Positions 13,027 to 20,345 of a stretch of 64,000 nucleotides of DNA are shown piece by piece. Position 1 is the first letter of the stretch; each line of letters starts with the position of its first letter. Under the pieces are notes generated by a model that had not been told where the DNA came from, did no database searches, and saw only the letters and a list, made by a program, of their open reading frames with translations. The position numbers were made by a program, and so were the translations under genes. This DNA comes from an uncultured Desulfosarcina sp. GTDB taxonomy: Bacteria; Desulfobacterota; Desulfobacteria; Desulfobacterales; Desulfosarcinaceae. The stretch spans positions 128,001 to 192,000 of the forward strand of contig CAXXWQ010000004.1 in assembly GCA_963674945.2 (NCBI GenBank), given 5' to 3'.

Positions 13027-13809
13027 ATGGATCTTGCAACCATAATCGGTCTTGTCAGCGGCAGCGTATTGATTCTGGTCTCCATCGTCGTTGGTGGAAG
13101 TGCCCTTATCTTTCTTAACATTCCCGGATTGTTAATCGTCGTCGGCGGTACCGTTGCCACCACCTTCATCAAATTCACCATGGCAGACGTCATCGGTTCG
13201 ATCAAAGTCGCCATGAAGGCCTTCATCGTAAAAATGGAGGATCCGGAAAACATCATCACGGAAATGGTCGAATTTACCCGTATCGCAAAAAAGGAAGGAC
13301 TCATCGCACTGGAAAAGGAGACCCCCTCTGATCCGTTTTCTGTAAAAGCACTGCGATACCTTTCCGACGGCTACGATGAGGGCCTTATTTCCGATATGCT
13401 CAGCAAGGATATCCGACTCATGGGACAGCGCCATGCCACCGGCCAGAATGTTTTCAAAGGCATGGGGGACAGTGCGCCGGCCTTTGGCATGGTGGGAACC
13501 CTCATCGGCCTCGTTCAGATGTTGGCCTCCATGTCCGATCCGGCCAGCATCGGACCGGCTATGGCCGTCGCCCTTCTCACCACCTTGTACGGTGCCGTTC
13601 TCGCCAACCTCGTCGCATTGCCCATTGCAGACAAACTGGCACTGCGCAGCGATCAGGAGAGACTGAACAAAAGCATTATCATGGAGGCCGCCATCGCCAT
13701 CAACCGGGGCGTCTCCCCCATGGTACTGGAAGAGTCACTCAAAATTTTTCTCTCACCCCAGGAGCGAAACCAGATCGAGGCCGAAGGCGAAGCCGGAGAG
13801 GCCGGATGA
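13027..13809 (+). CDS. motA: Flagellar stator A subunit (PomA/MotA)
   Basis: MDLATIIG, IVVGGT, APAFGMVGTLIGLV, AVALLTTLYG. Confidence 0.95.
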   Translation: MDLATIIGLVSGSVLILVSIVVGGSALIFLNIPGLLIVVGGTVATTFIKFTMADVIGSIKVAMKAFIVKMEDPENIITEMVEFTRIAKKEGLIALEKETPSDPFSVKALRYLSDGYDEGLISDMLSKDIRLMGQRHATGQNVFKGMGDSAPAFGMVGTLIGLVQMLASMSDPASIGPAMAVALLTTLYGAVLANLVALPIADKLALRSDQERLNKSIIMEAAIAINRGVSPMVLEESLKIFLSPQERNQIEAEGEAGEAG

Positions 13810-13820
13810 CAAGGTGAACC

Positions 13821-14627
13821 ATGAGTAACGAACACCAAGAATGCCCACCGTGCGATAAGGGCGCGCCGAGGTGGATGACAACATTCGGCGACCTGATGAG
13901 CCTGCTCCTCTGTTTTTTCGTGCTCCTGCTTTCTTTTTCTGAAATGGACCGACAAAAGTACAAGGTTGTCGCCGGCTCCATGGAGAAGGCCTTTGGCATG
14001 CAGCGCAAGAAAAACTTCGACGAGTCTCCCCGTCTGGGATTGAAAATTATCGCCCGGGACTTCGACCAGGAGGCCATCGCCACACGATTAAAACAATTCA
14101 TCGGGGAGCAGCTGAAGGAAAATTTCGGTGAACTCTACGAAGAGTTGGCGGAAGAGATCGAGATCGAGGCCGGGCAGGAAGAAGTGGTCATTCGACTCAT
14201 GGGAGAAAGTACGTTCGATTCGGGAAAGGCGGATATCAAGCCGGAATTGAAGCCGATGATCCGTACCATGGGAAAGATCCTTATCGAAATGGCCAAAGGT
14301 GACGTTGTCATTGCAGGGCATACCGACAACGTACCGGTCCGCCGCAACGGCCATTTCAAATCCAACCTCGCCCTATCCATGGCAAGGGCTGCGGCGGTAG
14401 CGGATTTCCTGCTCACACAGACCTCTTTGGATCCCAAGCGTGTCTCTACCATGGGATTCGGCGAGTACAGACCCATTGCCGACAATGCAACAGAAGCGGG
14501 CAGACGTAAAAACCGGCGCGTGGAGATCATCGTCGGCACCATTCCCCGACCCCAACCCAGCGAACTGTCAAATTTGAGGAATGAGGCGTATTTACGATAC
14601 TCCGTAGTGACGAAGGATGAAGCGTAA
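13821..14627 (+). CDS. motB: Flagellar stator B subunit (PomB/MotB)
   Basis: WMTTFGDLMSLLLCFFVLLLSFSEMD TM with the conserved Asp; OmpA-like domain GHTDN...NRRVEI. Confidence 0.95.
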   Translation: MSNEHQECPPCDKGAPRWMTTFGDLMSLLLCFFVLLLSFSEMDRQKYKVVAGSMEKAFGMQRKKNFDESPRLGLKIIARDFDQEAIATRLKQFIGEQLKENFGELYEELAEEIEIEAGQEEVVIRLMGESTFDSGKADIKPELKPMIRTMGKILIEMAKGDVVIAGHTDNVPVRRNGHFKSNLALSMARAAAVADFLLTQTSLDPKRVSTMGFGEYRPIADNATEAGRRKNRRVEIIVGTIPRPQPSELSNLRNEAYLRYSVVTKDEA

Positions 14628-15315: not shown

Positions 15316-18300
15316 ATGAATCAACTGTTTAAAGTCAAAACCTTTGCAATCGTAGGAGCTTTTCTTTTCACGATCTTCGTCGTCTGGTGCCCGCAGTCAA
15401 TGGCAACCGAGGCGGCATCAGAAGACATACAGCATCTGGCCATGGGGACCGTCGGCGATACGCCGCAGGATGTTTCAAAAGCACCGCAGGAAAATGCGCA
15501 AACCTTGATGATTCATTTGGGCACTGCGCATTTTGACCCGCTTGACCAGCAACCGGCACAAATATCCGGCCTGTCCACGATACAGACCTATACGGAGGAG
15601 ACCGCCGGTTACTACATTGTCCAATTCGACGGTCCGATCCAACCCGATTGGAAAACAACCTTGAAACAAGCCGGTGTGGAAATTTTTGACTATGTGCCGG
15701 AATATGCATTTATCGTTCGTATGCCTTCCGCAACGGCGACCAGCGTACGCGCAATGGCGCATGTGCGCTGGGTTGGGATCTTCCAGCCGCTTTACCGGGT
15801 CAGTCAAAGCGCCGTGGATATGATGTATGCCACGACCAGTGAAGAAGCGGCGGAACCCGTCACCCTGCGGGTCAACATTTTTCCGGGGGAAAGCCCGGAG
15901 CAGATGGAAAGCCTCATCCAATCTTTGGGCGGCATCGTCGAAGAAAAAAGCAGCACAGAACTGAAGACCACCTTCAAAATTAAAATTCCGGCCGATAAGA
16001 TCAAAGAATTGGCCGAGATCAACGGCATTAAATGGGTAGAACCGGTACCCCAATGGAAGCTTTTTAACAACAATTCGACAGACGTCATGAATGTGCGTGC
16101 ACCACGCAATACAAAAGGGCTCTATGGCAGTGGTCAGACTGTGGGAATAGCGGACACCGGCCTGGACCAGGGCTCCGTGAATCCGAACATGTTGCACGAT
16201 GACTTTGAAAACGGTTCGGGGGCCACACGGGTCCTCGCCATTATCGACACCGCCGGTGACGGCGATACCTCAGACACAAATGGCCATGGGACCCATGTGG
16301 CCGGATCGGTTTTGGGCAATGGCCGGATGTCGGGCAGCGATCCGGTCAGCAGCAACTTTCCGGACACTTGCTTCGCCGGTATCGCACCCAAGGCCAATCT
16401 TGTGTTTCAGGCGAGTTGGGATACAAGCGTCGATCCACCTGCCCTGAACAATCCAACGGATTTAAACAATCTTTTTCGTGTCGCCCGTTCGGCCGGAGCC
16501 GATTTGCACACAAACAGCTGGGGTGCCAGCTTGGCCGGCCAATATACCTCCACTTCTCAAGATGTGGATGAATATATGTGGAACAACAAATCGTTTTTCA
16601 TCCAGTTTTCCGCAGGCAATTCAGGGGTTGACATGGACGCCGATGGGGTCATCGATCTGTACAGTATCGGCTCACCGGCCACCGCAAAGAACTGCCTCAC
16701 CGTCGGGGCCAGTGAAGGCGACCGTCCCAGTGGCGCAGGATACGACATGGCATGGGGGACGTTTCACCCCTATAACTTTTCTGCCGCACCCATTGCCAGT
16801 GACCATGTATCCGACAATGATCGCGGCATTGCCGCCTTCAGTTCTCGCGGTCCTACTTTAGACGGTCGCCATAAACCCGATATCGTTGCCCCCGGAACCA
16901 ACATTCTTTCCACCCGTTCTTCTGTGGGTGGTAATATATGGGGAGCCTATCCTGCGAATTCAAATTATATTTGGGCTGGTGGCACGAGTATGGCCACGCC
17001 CCTGACGGCCGGTGCAGCCGCTCTGATGCGTGAATACCTGGTCAGCAAAAAGGGGTTCTCCCCTCCTTCGGCGGCATTGATCAAAGCGGCGCTGATCAAC
17101 AGCGCCGAAGATATCACCCCGGGTCAATACGGTTTCGGTTCAGACCAGGAGATCCCCGATTCACCTGTGCCGAACAATGTGGAGGGCTGGGGCCGGCTGA
17201 ACCTTGGTGATGGCGTCTTTCCGGAAACACCGGCCAATATCTTGTATTACGACCATACCGCAGGGCTCGATACCGGTGAGTACAACGAATACACCATCAA
17301 TGTGACCGATACCGGCGCACCCTTGAAGATCAATCTGGTATGGACCGACTATCCGGGCACACCGGCGGCACAGGGTGGATTGGTAAACGACCTCGATCTG
17401 AAGGTAATGGATACGAATGATGTGGCACACTACCCAAACCATGCCTCAAAAAAATCTTCGCTCAGCACGATGAACTACAATTCTGGTGTCAATCTCTCGG
17501 CGTCTACCAATAATAAAAGGGCAATACGGTTTACGCCAGCAGCATATCCGGCCTTTGTCGAATCAACCACATTTAATTTTATAAATAATGCCCCGGTCGG
17601 CACAAACGTGGACGTGGTTGTATATGATGACGATGACACAAACGGACTTCCCGGAACCGAGCTTTTCAGAAAAACCCTCGCCTATGTCCCGACAGGCTAT
17701 GTGAGCGTTGGTATCCAAGGCGTGGTTATCAATAATGGTGATTTCTACATCGCCATTGAAAAATCCAGTTCAATTCAGGCCATCGTCATTGATAACGACG
17801 GCAATCCAACGAACAGAAGTTACTGGCACAATGGATTGGAATGGGGCTTATCAAGCTATACCGCCTACATAAGAGCCAATATCAGGACAGCAGCGTATTC
17901 CACCAGCTTTGACCGCGTCAACAACACCCTGGGCATTACTTTCGATTCGCCGGTTGTGGGCAACTACACCATCCGGGTAGCCGGTTTTAACGTACCCCAA
18001 GGCCCTCAACCCTATGCACTGGTGGCCAGCGGTCACATCCAGGCAACCCAGGCCGGCGTGCTGCAGTTTGAGTCCGGCAATTTCAGCGTCGGTGAAAACG
18101 ACGGCGCGGCGACCATCACTGTGGTCCGCACCGGCGGTACCGAAGGAAATGTCAGCCTAAATTATGCGACCAGTAACGGTACGGCTACTGCAGGCAGCGA
18201 CTATACGACGGCCAGTGGAACGTTGAACTGGAGCAGTGGTGATGACAGCAAAAAACGTTTCACTATCCCGATCTCCGATGACAATACCATTGAATCGAGC

Positions 18301-18468
18301 GAAACGATCATATTGACGCTGAGCAATCCTAGCGGTGGCGCCGCCTTGGGTAGCAACGATACCGCGATTTTAACCATCAACGATAATGATAGCGCGAAAG
18401 AAGTTCCAGTTGAACCAGGTGGTGGTGGCGGTGGCGGCGGGTGTTTTGTCGACATGCTGCTTTACTAA
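15316..18468 (+). CDS. Secreted S8 (subtilisin, KP-43-like) serine protease with a Calx-beta domain and Gly-rich Cys C-terminal tail
   Basis: Signal peptide; catalytic triad IADTG / HGTHVAGS / GGTSMATP and oxyanion SAGN; Calx-beta (ENDGAATITVVRTGG...GTATAGSDY); ends GGGGGGGGCFVDMLLY. Confidence 0.92.
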   Translation: MNQLFKVKTFAIVGAFLFTIFVVWCPQSMATEAASEDIQHLAMGTVGDTPQDVSKAPQENAQTLMIHLGTAHFDPLDQQPAQISGLSTIQTYTEETAGYYIVQFDGPIQPDWKTTLKQAGVEIFDYVPEYAFIVRMPSATATSVRAMAHVRWVGIFQPLYRVSQSAVDMMYATTSEEAAEPVTLRVNIFPGESPEQMESLIQSLGGIVEEKSSTELKTTFKIKIPADKIKELAEINGIKWVEPVPQWKLFNNNSTDVMNVRAPRNTKGLYGSGQTVGIADTGLDQGSVNPNMLHDDFENGSGATRVLAIIDTAGDGDTSDTNGHGTHVAGSVLGNGRMSGSDPVSSNFPDTCFAGIAPKANLVFQASWDTSVDPPALNNPTDLNNLFRVARSAGADLHTNSWGASLAGQYTSTSQDVDEYMWNNKSFFIQFSAGNSGVDMDADGVIDLYSIGSPATAKNCLTVGASEGDRPSGAGYDMAWGTFHPYNFSAAPIASDHVSDNDRGIAAFSSRGPTLDGRHKPDIVAPGTNILSTRSSVGGNIWGAYPANSNYIWAGGTSMATPLTAGAAALMREYLVSKKGFSPPSAALIKAALINSAEDITPGQYGFGSDQEIPDSPVPNNVEGWGRLNLGDGVFPETPANILYYDHTAGLDTGEYNEYTINVTDTGAPLKINLVWTDYPGTPAAQGGLVNDLDLKVMDTNDVAHYPNHASKKSSLSTMNYNSGVNLSASTNNKRAIRFTPAAYPAFVESTTFNFINNAPVGTNVDVVVYDDDDTNGLPGTELFRKTLAYVPTGYVSVGIQGVVINNGDFYIAIEKSSSIQAIVIDNDGNPTNRSYWHNGLEWGLSSYTAYIRANIRTAAYSTSFDRVNNTLGITFDSPVVGNYTIRVAGFNVPQGPQPYALVASGHIQATQAGVLQFESGNFSVGENDGAATITVVRTGGTEGNVSLNYATSNGTATAGSDYTTASGTLNWSSGDDSKKRFTIPISDDNTIESSETIILTLSNPSGGAALGSNDTAILTINDNDSAKEVPVEPGGGGGGGGCFVDMLLY

Positions 18469-18545
18469 GACCCAAACGGAGCGATTTATGGGGAGAAGGG
18501 GGTACCCTAACAGCTACCCCCCCCAAGCAGCCTGGCATATGGATC

Positions 18546-18561
18546 ATCCACCATGGTGGAT
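18546..18561. terminator. Perfect 16-bp palindrome between the convergent protease genes (possible bidirectional terminator)
   Basis: ATCCACCATGGTGGAT; no adjacent U-tract, so the function is uncertain. Confidence 0.35.
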
Positions 18562-18610
18562 AATCACTGCCGCTTCGATCAAACAAAAGAAATGTTTTTT
18601 CCTTCGGCTA

Positions 18611-20308
18611 CTAGTAACGCATCAATTCGTTGATAAAACAACCTCCACCTGAAGATCCCTTTCCAACGGCGTTTTCGCCTCCGGACCAACCGGTACCTTT
18701 TCCCGTACCGTCACCGTCGATCTCTTTCGGCAGGTCGCCTTTCACCACGGCGTTCGGATCATGGGTAACGGCAACAACGACATCGTCCGTATCGGTGGCA
18801 CCCAGACTGTCCGTGACGCGAAGCTGAAATATCATCGACGTGCCTTCCGCCAGATCGGGAATGGTAATCTCGGTGACAGGATTGTGCGGATTGCCGATTG
18901 TGACGACGGGTCCTTCCAACTGCTTCCATTGATAGGCGGCAATGGAAGCGCCGTCCGGATCGATCCCGGCACCCGCCAGCGTTCCAATACTTCCCGAAAG
19001 AGCTACCTGATCGCCTCCGGCATTTGCCGTCGGCGCGGTGTTGAGCGGCTCGATTCCGGTGATGGCCACCTGTGAGGTACGATCCCATAGATACGACCCC
19101 GTGCTGAAGGCGTTGGTGATATCGTAGTATCCATCATAGGATCCGGATTGACCGAAATTGATGTGGATCTTATCCGTCGGACCTTTCTGGTAACCATCCA
19201 CGACGGTCTCATGCCCGCCGGAATAATCCGCAAGAAAGATCGAAAGGATCACCGGTCTCGGAGGATCCGCATCCAGTTCGGATGTAAACAGCGAAAACCA
19301 TTGGTCGGAGGTATAATTGGAACGATGGTGCTCTTCCATGGAGGGGGTATACCGAAAATAGACGTCGAGAATATCATCGGCAAACGCAGCGCTGCTGGAA
19401 GCCTTGCATCCGTAAGCCATGTTTGTGGCAATCCCCATATCCGATATCAGCTGCGCCACTGCCTCGATTTCCGATGTGCCGGACCGGCTGTCCAATGCCC
19501 TCGGCATGAGATCCCACTGGTACGCATGGGAAAAATTGGCGCTCAGCGTGATCGTCGAACCGTTTGACGCCTGCCACGAATAGGAATGAGAACCGGTTCC
19601 TTTGGGCGGCCAGTTCCAATAGGCGGCAAGTTGTGCAAATGCCGTGGCGACACAGCCGGTCAATGTGTGCGCACAGCCACCATCTGCGGGAGTGAAAGAA
19701 TTATAGGGATCGAATTGTCCCCAGGAGGTCATGAGAACCGGCCCGACCGACTCCATATTTTCACCCGATACGGACTGGCTGCCGGTGAAATCGTCGGCAC
19801 CCGAAGAAAAGTCAACAGGATCCGTTTCGGAATACAATCTCCATGCCCCCGCAATCCTTTTCCTTGAATCTGTCGATGCAGCGGTTTGCAGATCGAGTTG
19901 GATTTCCCCATCATCGTTTCCGGCATCGGCGATATTCTCGAAAATCTCACGTGCGATCCATGATTCGAGGGAGCCTATGATTTCAATGCGATCCTCTTGA
20001 AAATCGGATGTCTCCGAATAAAGAAGAACCGGACTGCTGCCGAAATGACCCGCGATCAAAACATGCCCTGCCGGTGAAACCTCAAAATTGAATGCAATGC
20101 GTTTTCCACCAAAAATGATTTCATTTCCTTCGATAATTTCGGCGGCAGCGGAATTTCCCCATTTGCCGTAGTGCGATACGTGGTATCGGACAGTATTTTC
20201 TGCGACGACCCTTGCCAGCTCTTCGCTTACGACCTCACCATGGCAAGGTGCAACGAAAACAGTGACAATGATCCATCCATAAAGCCAATTTTTCCATAAA
20301 GACGACAT
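18611..20308 (-). CDS. Secreted C10 (streptopain-family) cysteine protease with propeptide, PKD/Ig-like domain and Gly-rich Cys C-terminal tail
   Basis: WGQFDPYN, TGCVATA (Cys), GGHETVVDGY (His), HINFG; PTANAGGDQ...YQWKQ PKD-like domain; ends GSSGGGCFINELMRY. ATG 20308 has an AAGGAG RBS (alternative start 20338). Confidence 0.9.
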   Translation of the reverse strand: MSSLWKNWLYGWIIVTVFVAPCHGEVVSEELARVVAENTVRYHVSHYGKWGNSAAAEIIEGNEIIFGGKRIAFNFEVSPAGHVLIAGHFGSSPVLLYSETSDFQEDRIEIIGSLESWIAREIFENIADAGNDDGEIQLDLQTAASTDSRKRIAGAWRLYSETDPVDFSSGADDFTGSQSVSGENMESVGPVLMTSWGQFDPYNSFTPADGGCAHTLTGCVATAFAQLAAYWNWPPKGTGSHSYSWQASNGSTITLSANFSHAYQWDLMPRALDSRSGTSEIEAVAQLISDMGIATNMAYGCKASSSAAFADDILDVYFRYTPSMEEHHRSNYTSDQWFSLFTSELDADPPRPVILSIFLADYSGGHETVVDGYQKGPTDKIHINFGQSGSYDGYYDITNAFSTGSYLWDRTSQVAITGIEPLNTAPTANAGGDQVALSGSIGTLAGAGIDPDGASIAAYQWKQLEGPVVTIGNPHNPVTEITIPDLAEGTSMIFQLRVTDSLGATDTDDVVVAVTHDPNAVVKGDLPKEIDGDGTGKGTGWSGGENAVGKGSSGGGCFINELMRY

Positions 20309-20345
20309 CGAGCTGATCTCCTTCCATTTTTCCTTCATGGAAAAG

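Follow-up and report, generated by a model that had tools for sequence, protein, structure and literature searches.

A catalogued but unstudied cysteine tail on exported proteins of an uncultured Desulfosarcina and a HEAT-repeat and CPBP gene pair as its candidate machinery

The C-terminal sorting signals set out in the accessible part of the preprint 10.1101/2023.06.07.544157 are tripartite, with a membrane helix and a basic tail. For one of them, MYXO-CTERM, the available sections of PMC11980579 describe cleavage by the CPBP enzyme MrtX, for which the Cys is required, propose lipidation, and name Lgt as the leading candidate for an acyltransferase that is still being sought. Type II secretion is a requirement for cargo of the MYXO-CTERM as well as the GlyGly-CTERM kind, as stated in the accessible parts of 10.1101/2023.06.07.544157 and 10.64898/2026.02.05.703148. 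NCBIfam holds two models of a C-terminal 'CFI-box': NF041763, the 'CFI-box putative sorting motif' (sort_motif_CFI, 14 positions), and NF041770, the 'CFI-box-CTERM domain' (69 positions). In this paper we describe short tails of the CFI kind, which end two convergent protease genes in a stretch of 64,000 nucleotides from an uncultured Desulfosarcina sp. (contig CAXXWQ010000004.1, positions 128,001 to 192,000; hereafter the window). By analogy with the described systems, we lean slightly towards the view that these tails are a sorting signal, which would be bound by a HEAT-repeat membrane protein and, after modification of the Cys, trimmed by a CPBP protease.

No paper on the CFI-box motif was found in a literature search that left subscription journals, NCBI model comments and supplements outside its scope, and the string 'CFI' does not occur in the accessible text of the Haft preprint 10.1101/2023.06.07.544157. 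The motif class is catalogued yet unstudied. The motif itself is known, and what we add, read from sequence comparison, is an apparent split-domain homology and a near-exclusive distribution of its long and short forms. The two window genes and their tails are arranged as follows.

15316..18468, plus strand: S8 subtilase with a Calx-beta stalk, 1050 amino acids, signal-peptide-like N-terminus, short CFI-type tail
18418..18441, plus strand: Gly8 linker of the S8 protease, read from the sequence
18442..18468, plus strand: S8 tail CFVDMLLY and stop; invariant Cys codon 18442-18444, TAA 18466-18468
18611..18640, minus strand: C10 tail CFINELMRY and stop; invariant Cys codon 18638-18640, TAG 18611-18613
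18641..18658, minus strand: GSSGGG linker of the C10 protease, read from the sequence
18611..20338, minus strand: C10-family cysteine protease with a PKD stalk, 575 amino acids, signal-peptide-like N-terminus

The S8 protease ends in PGGGGGGGG-CFVDMLLY and the C10 protease in GKGSSGGG-CFINELMRY, and the interval 18418..18658 runs exactly from the first Gly codon of the S8 linker to the first Gly codon of the C10 linker. The original prediction, that both proteins end in a Gly linker, Cys, Phe, Ile or Val and a short tail free of transmembrane (TM) helix and basic cluster, is accurate on each point. Pfam finds Peptidase_S8 and Calx-beta in the one protein and Peptidase_C10 and PKD in the other. 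Catalytic motifs are found in both proteases, and both satisfy a crude signal-peptide rule, which was used instead of SignalP. No promoter-like or terminator-like site was found in the stretch between the convergent genes. The two tails are letter-identical in contigs of two public runs, which are possibly from the source sample and so not independent.

The NF041763 model has a cut-off of 15.9 bits. Among 18 tails of the genome, 8 reach it, 4 stay below and 6 give no match; in the window the C10 tail scores 13.8 bits and the S8 tail gives no match, so that neither reaches the cut-off. The model was rejected as a profiling tool for being too insensitive, and a tail profile built from 44 tails took its place. 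The S8 tail matches tail profile A2 with E 2.6e-5, A2 including the S8 tail itself. Judged by their letters, the window tails belong to the NF041763 motif class, while they are not formal members by cut-off: they have C-F-[IV] after a low-complexity linker near the C-terminus, the acidic or Gly linker and C-F-I of the model, and several unrelated exported carriers per genome. The NF041763 model line names no enzyme. The longer NF041770 domain is likewise a linker, C-F-I and a short helix, and it occurs on homologues of the same S8 protease, but the short form is without the helical core, TM helix and basic tail. The core LRxFRD..G..YY..SP..A does not follow CFI in the same chain, as the window tails stop after 8 and 9 residues.

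The genome holding the window (G000, with contigs C3 and C4 cited below) was searched with a position matrix seeded with 14 hand-picked tails. The gene caller was crude and overlooked 4 carriers, which we restored to the set of genes. The search finds 18 carriers, with a score gap from 21.5 to 16.2 bits, whose tails follow the pattern G/S/D-linker-Cys-Phe-Ile/Val: in 14 the tail is short, with 7-18 residues from the Cys and no membrane helix, in 3 it has a TM helix and a basic end, and the remaining one is of another type. The expression G{2,}CF[IV].{3,8}$, proposed as a check with the original prediction, matches 7 genes, whereas shuffling the last 60 residues 200 times gave a mean of 0.005 (maximum 1); the tail motif is therefore not due to chance. 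A G/S/D-rich octamer followed by CF[IV] occurs 18 times in the called genes, at most 20 residues from the end in 12 cases (expected share 5.4%) and at most 46 residues from the end in 16. Under the crude rule 15 of the 18 carriers are signal-peptide-like, compared to 979 of 4251 other genes. Two of the remaining three have a start called too far upstream, and correcting these by eye gives 17/18; the third is apparently truncated at its N-terminus. This last open reading frame, L009:4593-5426 (G000:C4:1014593-1015426), bears a tail without a signal peptide and looks like a remnant. Of 91 pairs of short-tail carriers, no more than 8 are similar outside the tail. The originally predicted C-terminal signal shared by unrelated exported proteins is thus supported, and the motif is neither confined to the two window proteins nor unenriched among exported ones. 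The tail observation is real, not a product of chance, and genome-wide.

The cargo includes proteases, Ig/PKD-rich proteins, a GDSL lipase (in the TM form) and a diheme protein. The last of these, L013:3140-5056 (G000:C4:2001140-2003056), is a GEGP-motif diheme protein with NF041762 above cut-off, a choice-of-anchor U domain and a short CFI tail, which places heme proteins among the cargo. A second copy of the C10 protease (G000:C3:83961-85682, minus strand, L015) is 99.8% identical across 520 residues and has a diverged linker and tail, RRG-CFIYVLMHQP; going by this identity, it is a recent duplication. In the window, the S8 and C10 genes and a PAS/LuxR-type regulator are flanked by motA/motB-like (13027-14627) and flgL/flgK-like (22126 onward) flagellar genes, the flagellar and regulator names being assigned by eye from translations. 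This block is probably an insertion into a flagellar region.

Among 40 tails from relatives, 32 have 7-11 residues, 4 have a TM helix, 2 have 15-26 residues and 2 are non-terminal or doubtful. For a closer comparison we aligned 47 tails chosen as short and on the motif, and 30 long tails likewise chosen on the motif. The Cys is invariant in these motif-selected sets (47/47 and 30/30), and in the short set, chosen as such, it lies 6-10 residues from the end. Gly precedes the Cys in 37/47 short tails; Ser, Asp, Glu, Ile and others are found otherwise, and Pro also in homologues. The predicted Gly linker is not a general rule, since Asp/Ser-rich linkers exist. Position +5 is Leu in 31/47 short tails versus Ala in 30/30 long forms. 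Within the same protease families the tail forms interchange. Of 34 C10 homologues, 29 have a short tail by a linker rule that misses the paralogue's tail, and the 120 S8 homologues divide into 28 short, 4 long-core, 3 TM-without-core, 4 other and 81 without any. Intermediates between long and short tails were seen as well: CFIATAAHGSL and CFIATAAQESWMAKETE, each before a stop codon, and LRxFR-helix remnants with ILRRFR (L388, L383, L381, L382, L152). These five loci sit in genomes possessing the HEAT-CPBP gene pair described below. A decoy for motif searches is a membrane protein family of ~440 residues with an internal GG-CFIDAL ~99 residues from the end (L362, L365, L367, L368, L372, L377), which we take to be TRAP DctM-like.

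NF041770 has no match above cut-off anywhere in the G000 genome. Its best match is not a cargo protein but a HEAT-repeat membrane protein, which it matches at model positions 21-45 only, and the genome's best Rce1-like match is the gene directly after it. This pair lies outside the window, 1.6 Mb away.

G000:C4:1758441-1759949, plus strand: HEAT-repeat membrane protein, 502 residues, predicted 7-TM
Ending at C4:1760596, plus strand: CPBP/Rce1-like protease gene, next to and overlapping the HEAT gene

The protease matches PF02517 with 70.4 bits (cut-off 22.4) and has EExxxR, FxxxH and HxxxN motifs, each found in 73/74 CPBP relatives. Its scores stay below the cut-off of every named sorting protease (MrtJ 49.5/75, Mrt_core 39.7/100, MrtS 30.5/130). 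Two other CPBP genes of the genome were rejected as the cognate protease, as the subfamily profile does not match them. Named relatives of the HEAT protein are labelled Desulfosarcina, Desulfobacterales and Thermodesulfobacteriota. In 42/47 distinct loci from relatives the two genes are found together. In a set of 80 contig loci, which overlaps the former within the genus, the CPBP gene directly follows the HEAT gene in 69 and lies at another place of the locus in 5; in 4 the contig breaks off there, and 2 are without the gene. No third conserved neighbour was found beyond the genus in the neighbourhoods of these 80 loci. One relative of the HEAT protein, L139:499-2928 (G197), has 809 residues with an N-terminal extension, and a segment appears to be reordered or duplicated before its RD/YY core.

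The match between HEAT protein and CFI-box-CTERM extends over the core of the long domain. Behind CFIATA, the 30 long forms continue with L-R-x-F-R-D..G..V..YY..SP..A and a third helix, and most of them then have a TM helix with a basic end; the long-domain model is predicted to be all-helical (helices 12-18, 24-37, 41-63, 65-83 and 85-113). This core aligns without gaps to HEAT-protein residues 169-214 (hhalign 96%, E 4.7e-9; in a repeat with 145 sequences 95%, E 2e-8). The register pairs R33-D34-L37-G43-Y50-Y51-A58 of the long domain with R182-D183-L186-G192-Y199-Y200-A207 of the HEAT protein. R33/R182, D34/D183, G43/G192, Y50/Y199 and Y51/Y200 are conserved to 99-100% in both families, and A58/A207 to 100% in the long domain and 94% in the HEAT family. 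Over 4779 called genes the long-domain profile puts the HEAT protein at the top (E 3.8e-4, the next at E 1.4), and the reverse, HEAT-derived profile matches 14/30 long-domain loci. The short-tail profile, in turn, matches the start of the long domain, its first helix (96%), and does not match the HEAT protein (0.2%). The original prediction had set the short motif apart from a longer 'CFI-box'. This separation has to be given up, as the short tail matches the first helix of CFI-box-CTERM and has its own model in NF041763.

Hydropathy and the positive-inside rule give the HEAT protein 7 hydrophobic segments and put both residues 174-309 and the HEAT repeats on the extracytoplasmic side; for residues 174-309 this predicted placement resembles that of the long domain's core. 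The structure model (predicted local distance difference test, pLDDT, 89) has helices at 177-186, 190-202 and 204-210 within residues 174-309. Structure and family searches gave little beyond the repeats: no Foldseek match to the model at E<=0.001; VIA matches only via the HEAT repeats (residues 365-502), the N-terminal 360 residues being barely probed; in the ESM Atlas only HEAT-bearing clusters and no usable match for residues 150-300; and in Pfam, over 27 members, only HEAT/ARM families in more than one member. For the long-domain model the best Z in the fold search was 4.5, and there was no PDB sequence match. Going by the alignments, cargo and HEAT protein hold complementary parts of one domain, and tail and HEAT core would reassemble. 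The best reading of the two matches, HEAT core to long core and tail to first helix, is a split system in which the tail would be completed in trans. We consider it likely that the tail is functionally linked to the HEAT-CPBP pair, whatever the chemistry.

The Gly before the Cys and the helical long domain bear on a different chemistry, in which cleavage would fall before the Cys: the thiol or the RD/YY site would drive Gly-Cys scission and the new C-terminal residue would be joined to lipid, as in GlyGly-CTERM. Hedgehog/Hint autoprocessing at GG-CF provides a parallel. The frequent Gly at -1 agrees with such scission, and a self-processing long domain would account for there being no need of a dedicated protease. 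GlyGly-CTERM proteins are cut after GG and gain a new C-terminal moiety, as the accessible part of 10.1101/2023.06.07.544157 describes. But position -1 is not invariant, and the partner protease is a CPBP protein and not a rhomboid. The Hint fold is a beta-fold, unlike the all-helical prediction for the long domain. We regard this chemistry as improbable.

For the distribution of tails and genes we used 300 phylum genomes with a completeness of at least 90%, G000 not being among them. The HEAT protein was scored by matches reaching beyond the HEAT repeats, the CPBP subfamily at a threshold of at least 112 bits and tail-profile hits at E<=0.05; tail hits were sorted into long forms and the rest, and from the rest those in long frames were inspected at the DNA level in each genome. 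The HEAT protein is found in 30/300 genomes (one partial) and the CPBP subfamily in 24, all among these 30; below the 24 come a contig-edge fragment (G180) at 87.6 bits and the rest at <=70 bits. Protease and short tails occur together in 23 genomes, protease alone in 1, tail alone in 2 and neither in 274. The profile of the motif against CPBP/Rce1 proteases, proposed with the original prediction, thus supports its claim of a processing enzyme outside the window, as the CPBP subfamily co-occurs tightly with the tails. The protease-only genome (G077) shows two short tails once the threshold is relaxed; with these counted, all 24 CPBP-subfamily genomes have core-less tails, besides the HEAT protein. 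A tail of at most 14 residues is found in 23 of the 24, while G345 has only longer core-less or decayed forms. Short tails occur in 2/276 genomes without the subfamily, and a lenient search of 65 other genomes gave no short linker-tail on a long frame in the best 30 of 61 hits. The short tails track the protease (24/24) better than the HEAT protein (24/30). The long domain behaves differently: it is above cut-off in 68 genomes, of which 2 have the CPBP subfamily, 66 do not, and 6 have the HEAT protein. No CPBP gene lies within 1.5 kb of the 30 long-domain loci.

Several observations weigh against the proposed roles of the pair. In two genomes, G316 of the phylum sample and G052 of an order sample, a short tail is present but neither gene was found; these genomes are 92% and 97% complete and fragmented. 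Conversely, six genomes (G100, G135, G227, G257, G249, G197) have the HEAT protein without the CPBP subfamily or an observed short tail, so the HEAT protein can exist without the protease; four of these (G100, G135, G227, G257, family f72; L119, L121, L122) have several long CFI-box-CTERM proteins. The 66/68 long-domain genomes without the subfamily show that cleavage by it is no general need of CFI-box proteins. The protease scores are partly circular, because 16 of the 24 CPBPs were in the profile's training alignment; the 8 outside it reached 112-268 bits. Beyond the 23 genomes that are double-positive at the strict threshold, 70 of the remaining 277 were covered by the lenient tail search. 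Fisher values overstate, since kin among the genomes do not count as independent.

The same observations can be read as docking without lipid. The retained tail helix would tether the cargo to the HEAT protein, non-covalently or by a disulfide, or hand it to the type II machinery, and the CPBP protease would only release or clear the tail. No transferase was found, the long form is mostly without the CPBP subfamily, which would fit a CFI-box that serves purely as an anchor module, and in the six genomes the HEAT protein persists in the absence of the protease. Set against this are the invariance of the Cys in both motif-selected tail sets, the short tails following the protease more closely than the HEAT protein, and the lack of any conserved Cys in the HEAT family. 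In addition, characterised CPBP enzymes act distal to the Cys, as far as the accessible parts of 10.1101/2023.06.07.544157 and PMC11980579 describe them. We think this alternative rather unlikely.

The shared distribution could also be inherited by default, the short tails being decaying remnants of long domains and the co-occurrence only shared ancestry. Intermediate truncations do exist and the genomes are related. However, the short tails have their own pattern (Leu instead of Ala at +5), a narrow length and unrelated carriers. Protease and tails occupy the same 13/94 families with presence mixed inside families, and a genome of the same genus (G012) is without all three parts. We regard decay as very improbable.

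Returning to the sorting signal that we favour, the proposed order of events is taken from the analogy with MrtX and MYXO-CTERM. The cargo would be exported by Sec, and the tail helix would then dock on the predicted periplasmic HEAT core, so that a unit present in cis in the long domain would be rebuilt in trans; the cargo could thereby do without a membrane helix of its own. The Cys might next be lipid-modified, either by ordinary Lgt or aided by the RD/YY site, after which the CPBP protease would cut distal to it and the protein, now anchored, would reach the outer surface by type II secretion. The proposal is weak in its chemistry, as tail binding, Cys lipidation and cleavage are all carried over by analogy. 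A tentative extension is a fission of CFI-box-CTERM: its first helix may have become a Cys tag of 7-10 residues and the rest a periplasmic reading head of the 7-TM HEAT protein, whose invariant Arg-Asp/Tyr-Tyr site may lipidate the Cys before Rce1-type trimming.

No lipid transferase was identified, which also speaks against the proposal. The divergent Lgt-like gene G000:C3:12390-13439 was rejected for this role, being present in only 5/24 short-tail genomes versus 5/44 others; it is patchy in the phylum and unlinked to CFI tails. It scores 25.4 bits (cut-off 24.9) and lies in region G000:C3:8906-14000 (L413), in an operon with a phosphatidylserine decarboxylase-like gene identified by eye.

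The link of the HEAT-CPBP pair to type II secretion is weak. This genome has gspD above cut-off in an apparently full gsp cluster, and GspD is present in 24/24 short-tail genomes, 15/16 long-form genomes and 18/28 genomes with neither form. In G187 the order on one strand is gspD-gspE-HEAT-CPBP, in G345 the protease faces gspE and in G279 the pair adjoins gspF; gsp genes are found in 3/19 of the larger HEAT-CPBP loci fetched. A further point against the proposal is that gsp genes are near the pair in only 4/80 loci and that in its own genome the pair is not near gsp. The universal GspD and the occasional gsp linkage would also fit a tail that is a type II targeting word only, with the proteins freely released. 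This would leave unexplained the invariant Cys, the membrane protease and the exchange with TM-bearing forms on homologous proteases, and we find it hardly credible.

Compared to MYXO-, JDVT-, Synerg- and CGP-CTERM, the tails share an invariant Cys near the C-terminus of exported proteins (47/47, the set having been chosen for the motif), the co-occurrence of a CPBP glutamic intramembrane protease and a type II secretion link. They differ in that the 14 short tails have no TM helix or Arg-rich cluster, with TM helix and basic end confined to 3 other carriers, in the second conserved gene, and in a protease below the cut-offs of the named Mrt models. With eukaryotic CAAX/Rce1 they share a TM-less Cys tail and an Rce1-family protease. 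The originally predicted minimal CAAX-reminiscent signal therefore stands for these two features and fails for the geometry, since the stretch from the Cys to the end has 6-10 residues and not 4 (47 tails, chosen as short). The cargo is moreover exported, so the step would be periplasmic, and no prenyltransferase is implied (none was sought). GlyGly-CTERM and rhombosortase resemble the present case in the flexible Gly linker before the signal, protease cargo and type II secretion, but GlyGly-CTERM has no Cys, a TM helix with basic tail and a rhomboid enzyme, in contrast to the helix-free tails here.

If the proposal is true, a Cys tag lacking a membrane helix, together with its candidate reader and protease, would represent a second design beside the membrane-helix signals described in the accessible part of 10.1101/2023.06.07.544157. 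If the fission reading is also true, it would be a periplasmic CAAX-like pathway, and the HEAT protein a candidate for the kind of Cys acyltransferase still sought for myxosortase systems. An orphan NCBIfam motif gains a candidate two-gene machine that could be rebuilt in a laboratory host, and the split-domain match is a first handle on the widespread long CFI-box-CTERM domain. As the cargo is so varied, the system may determine what these relatives of sulfate reducers display on their surface.

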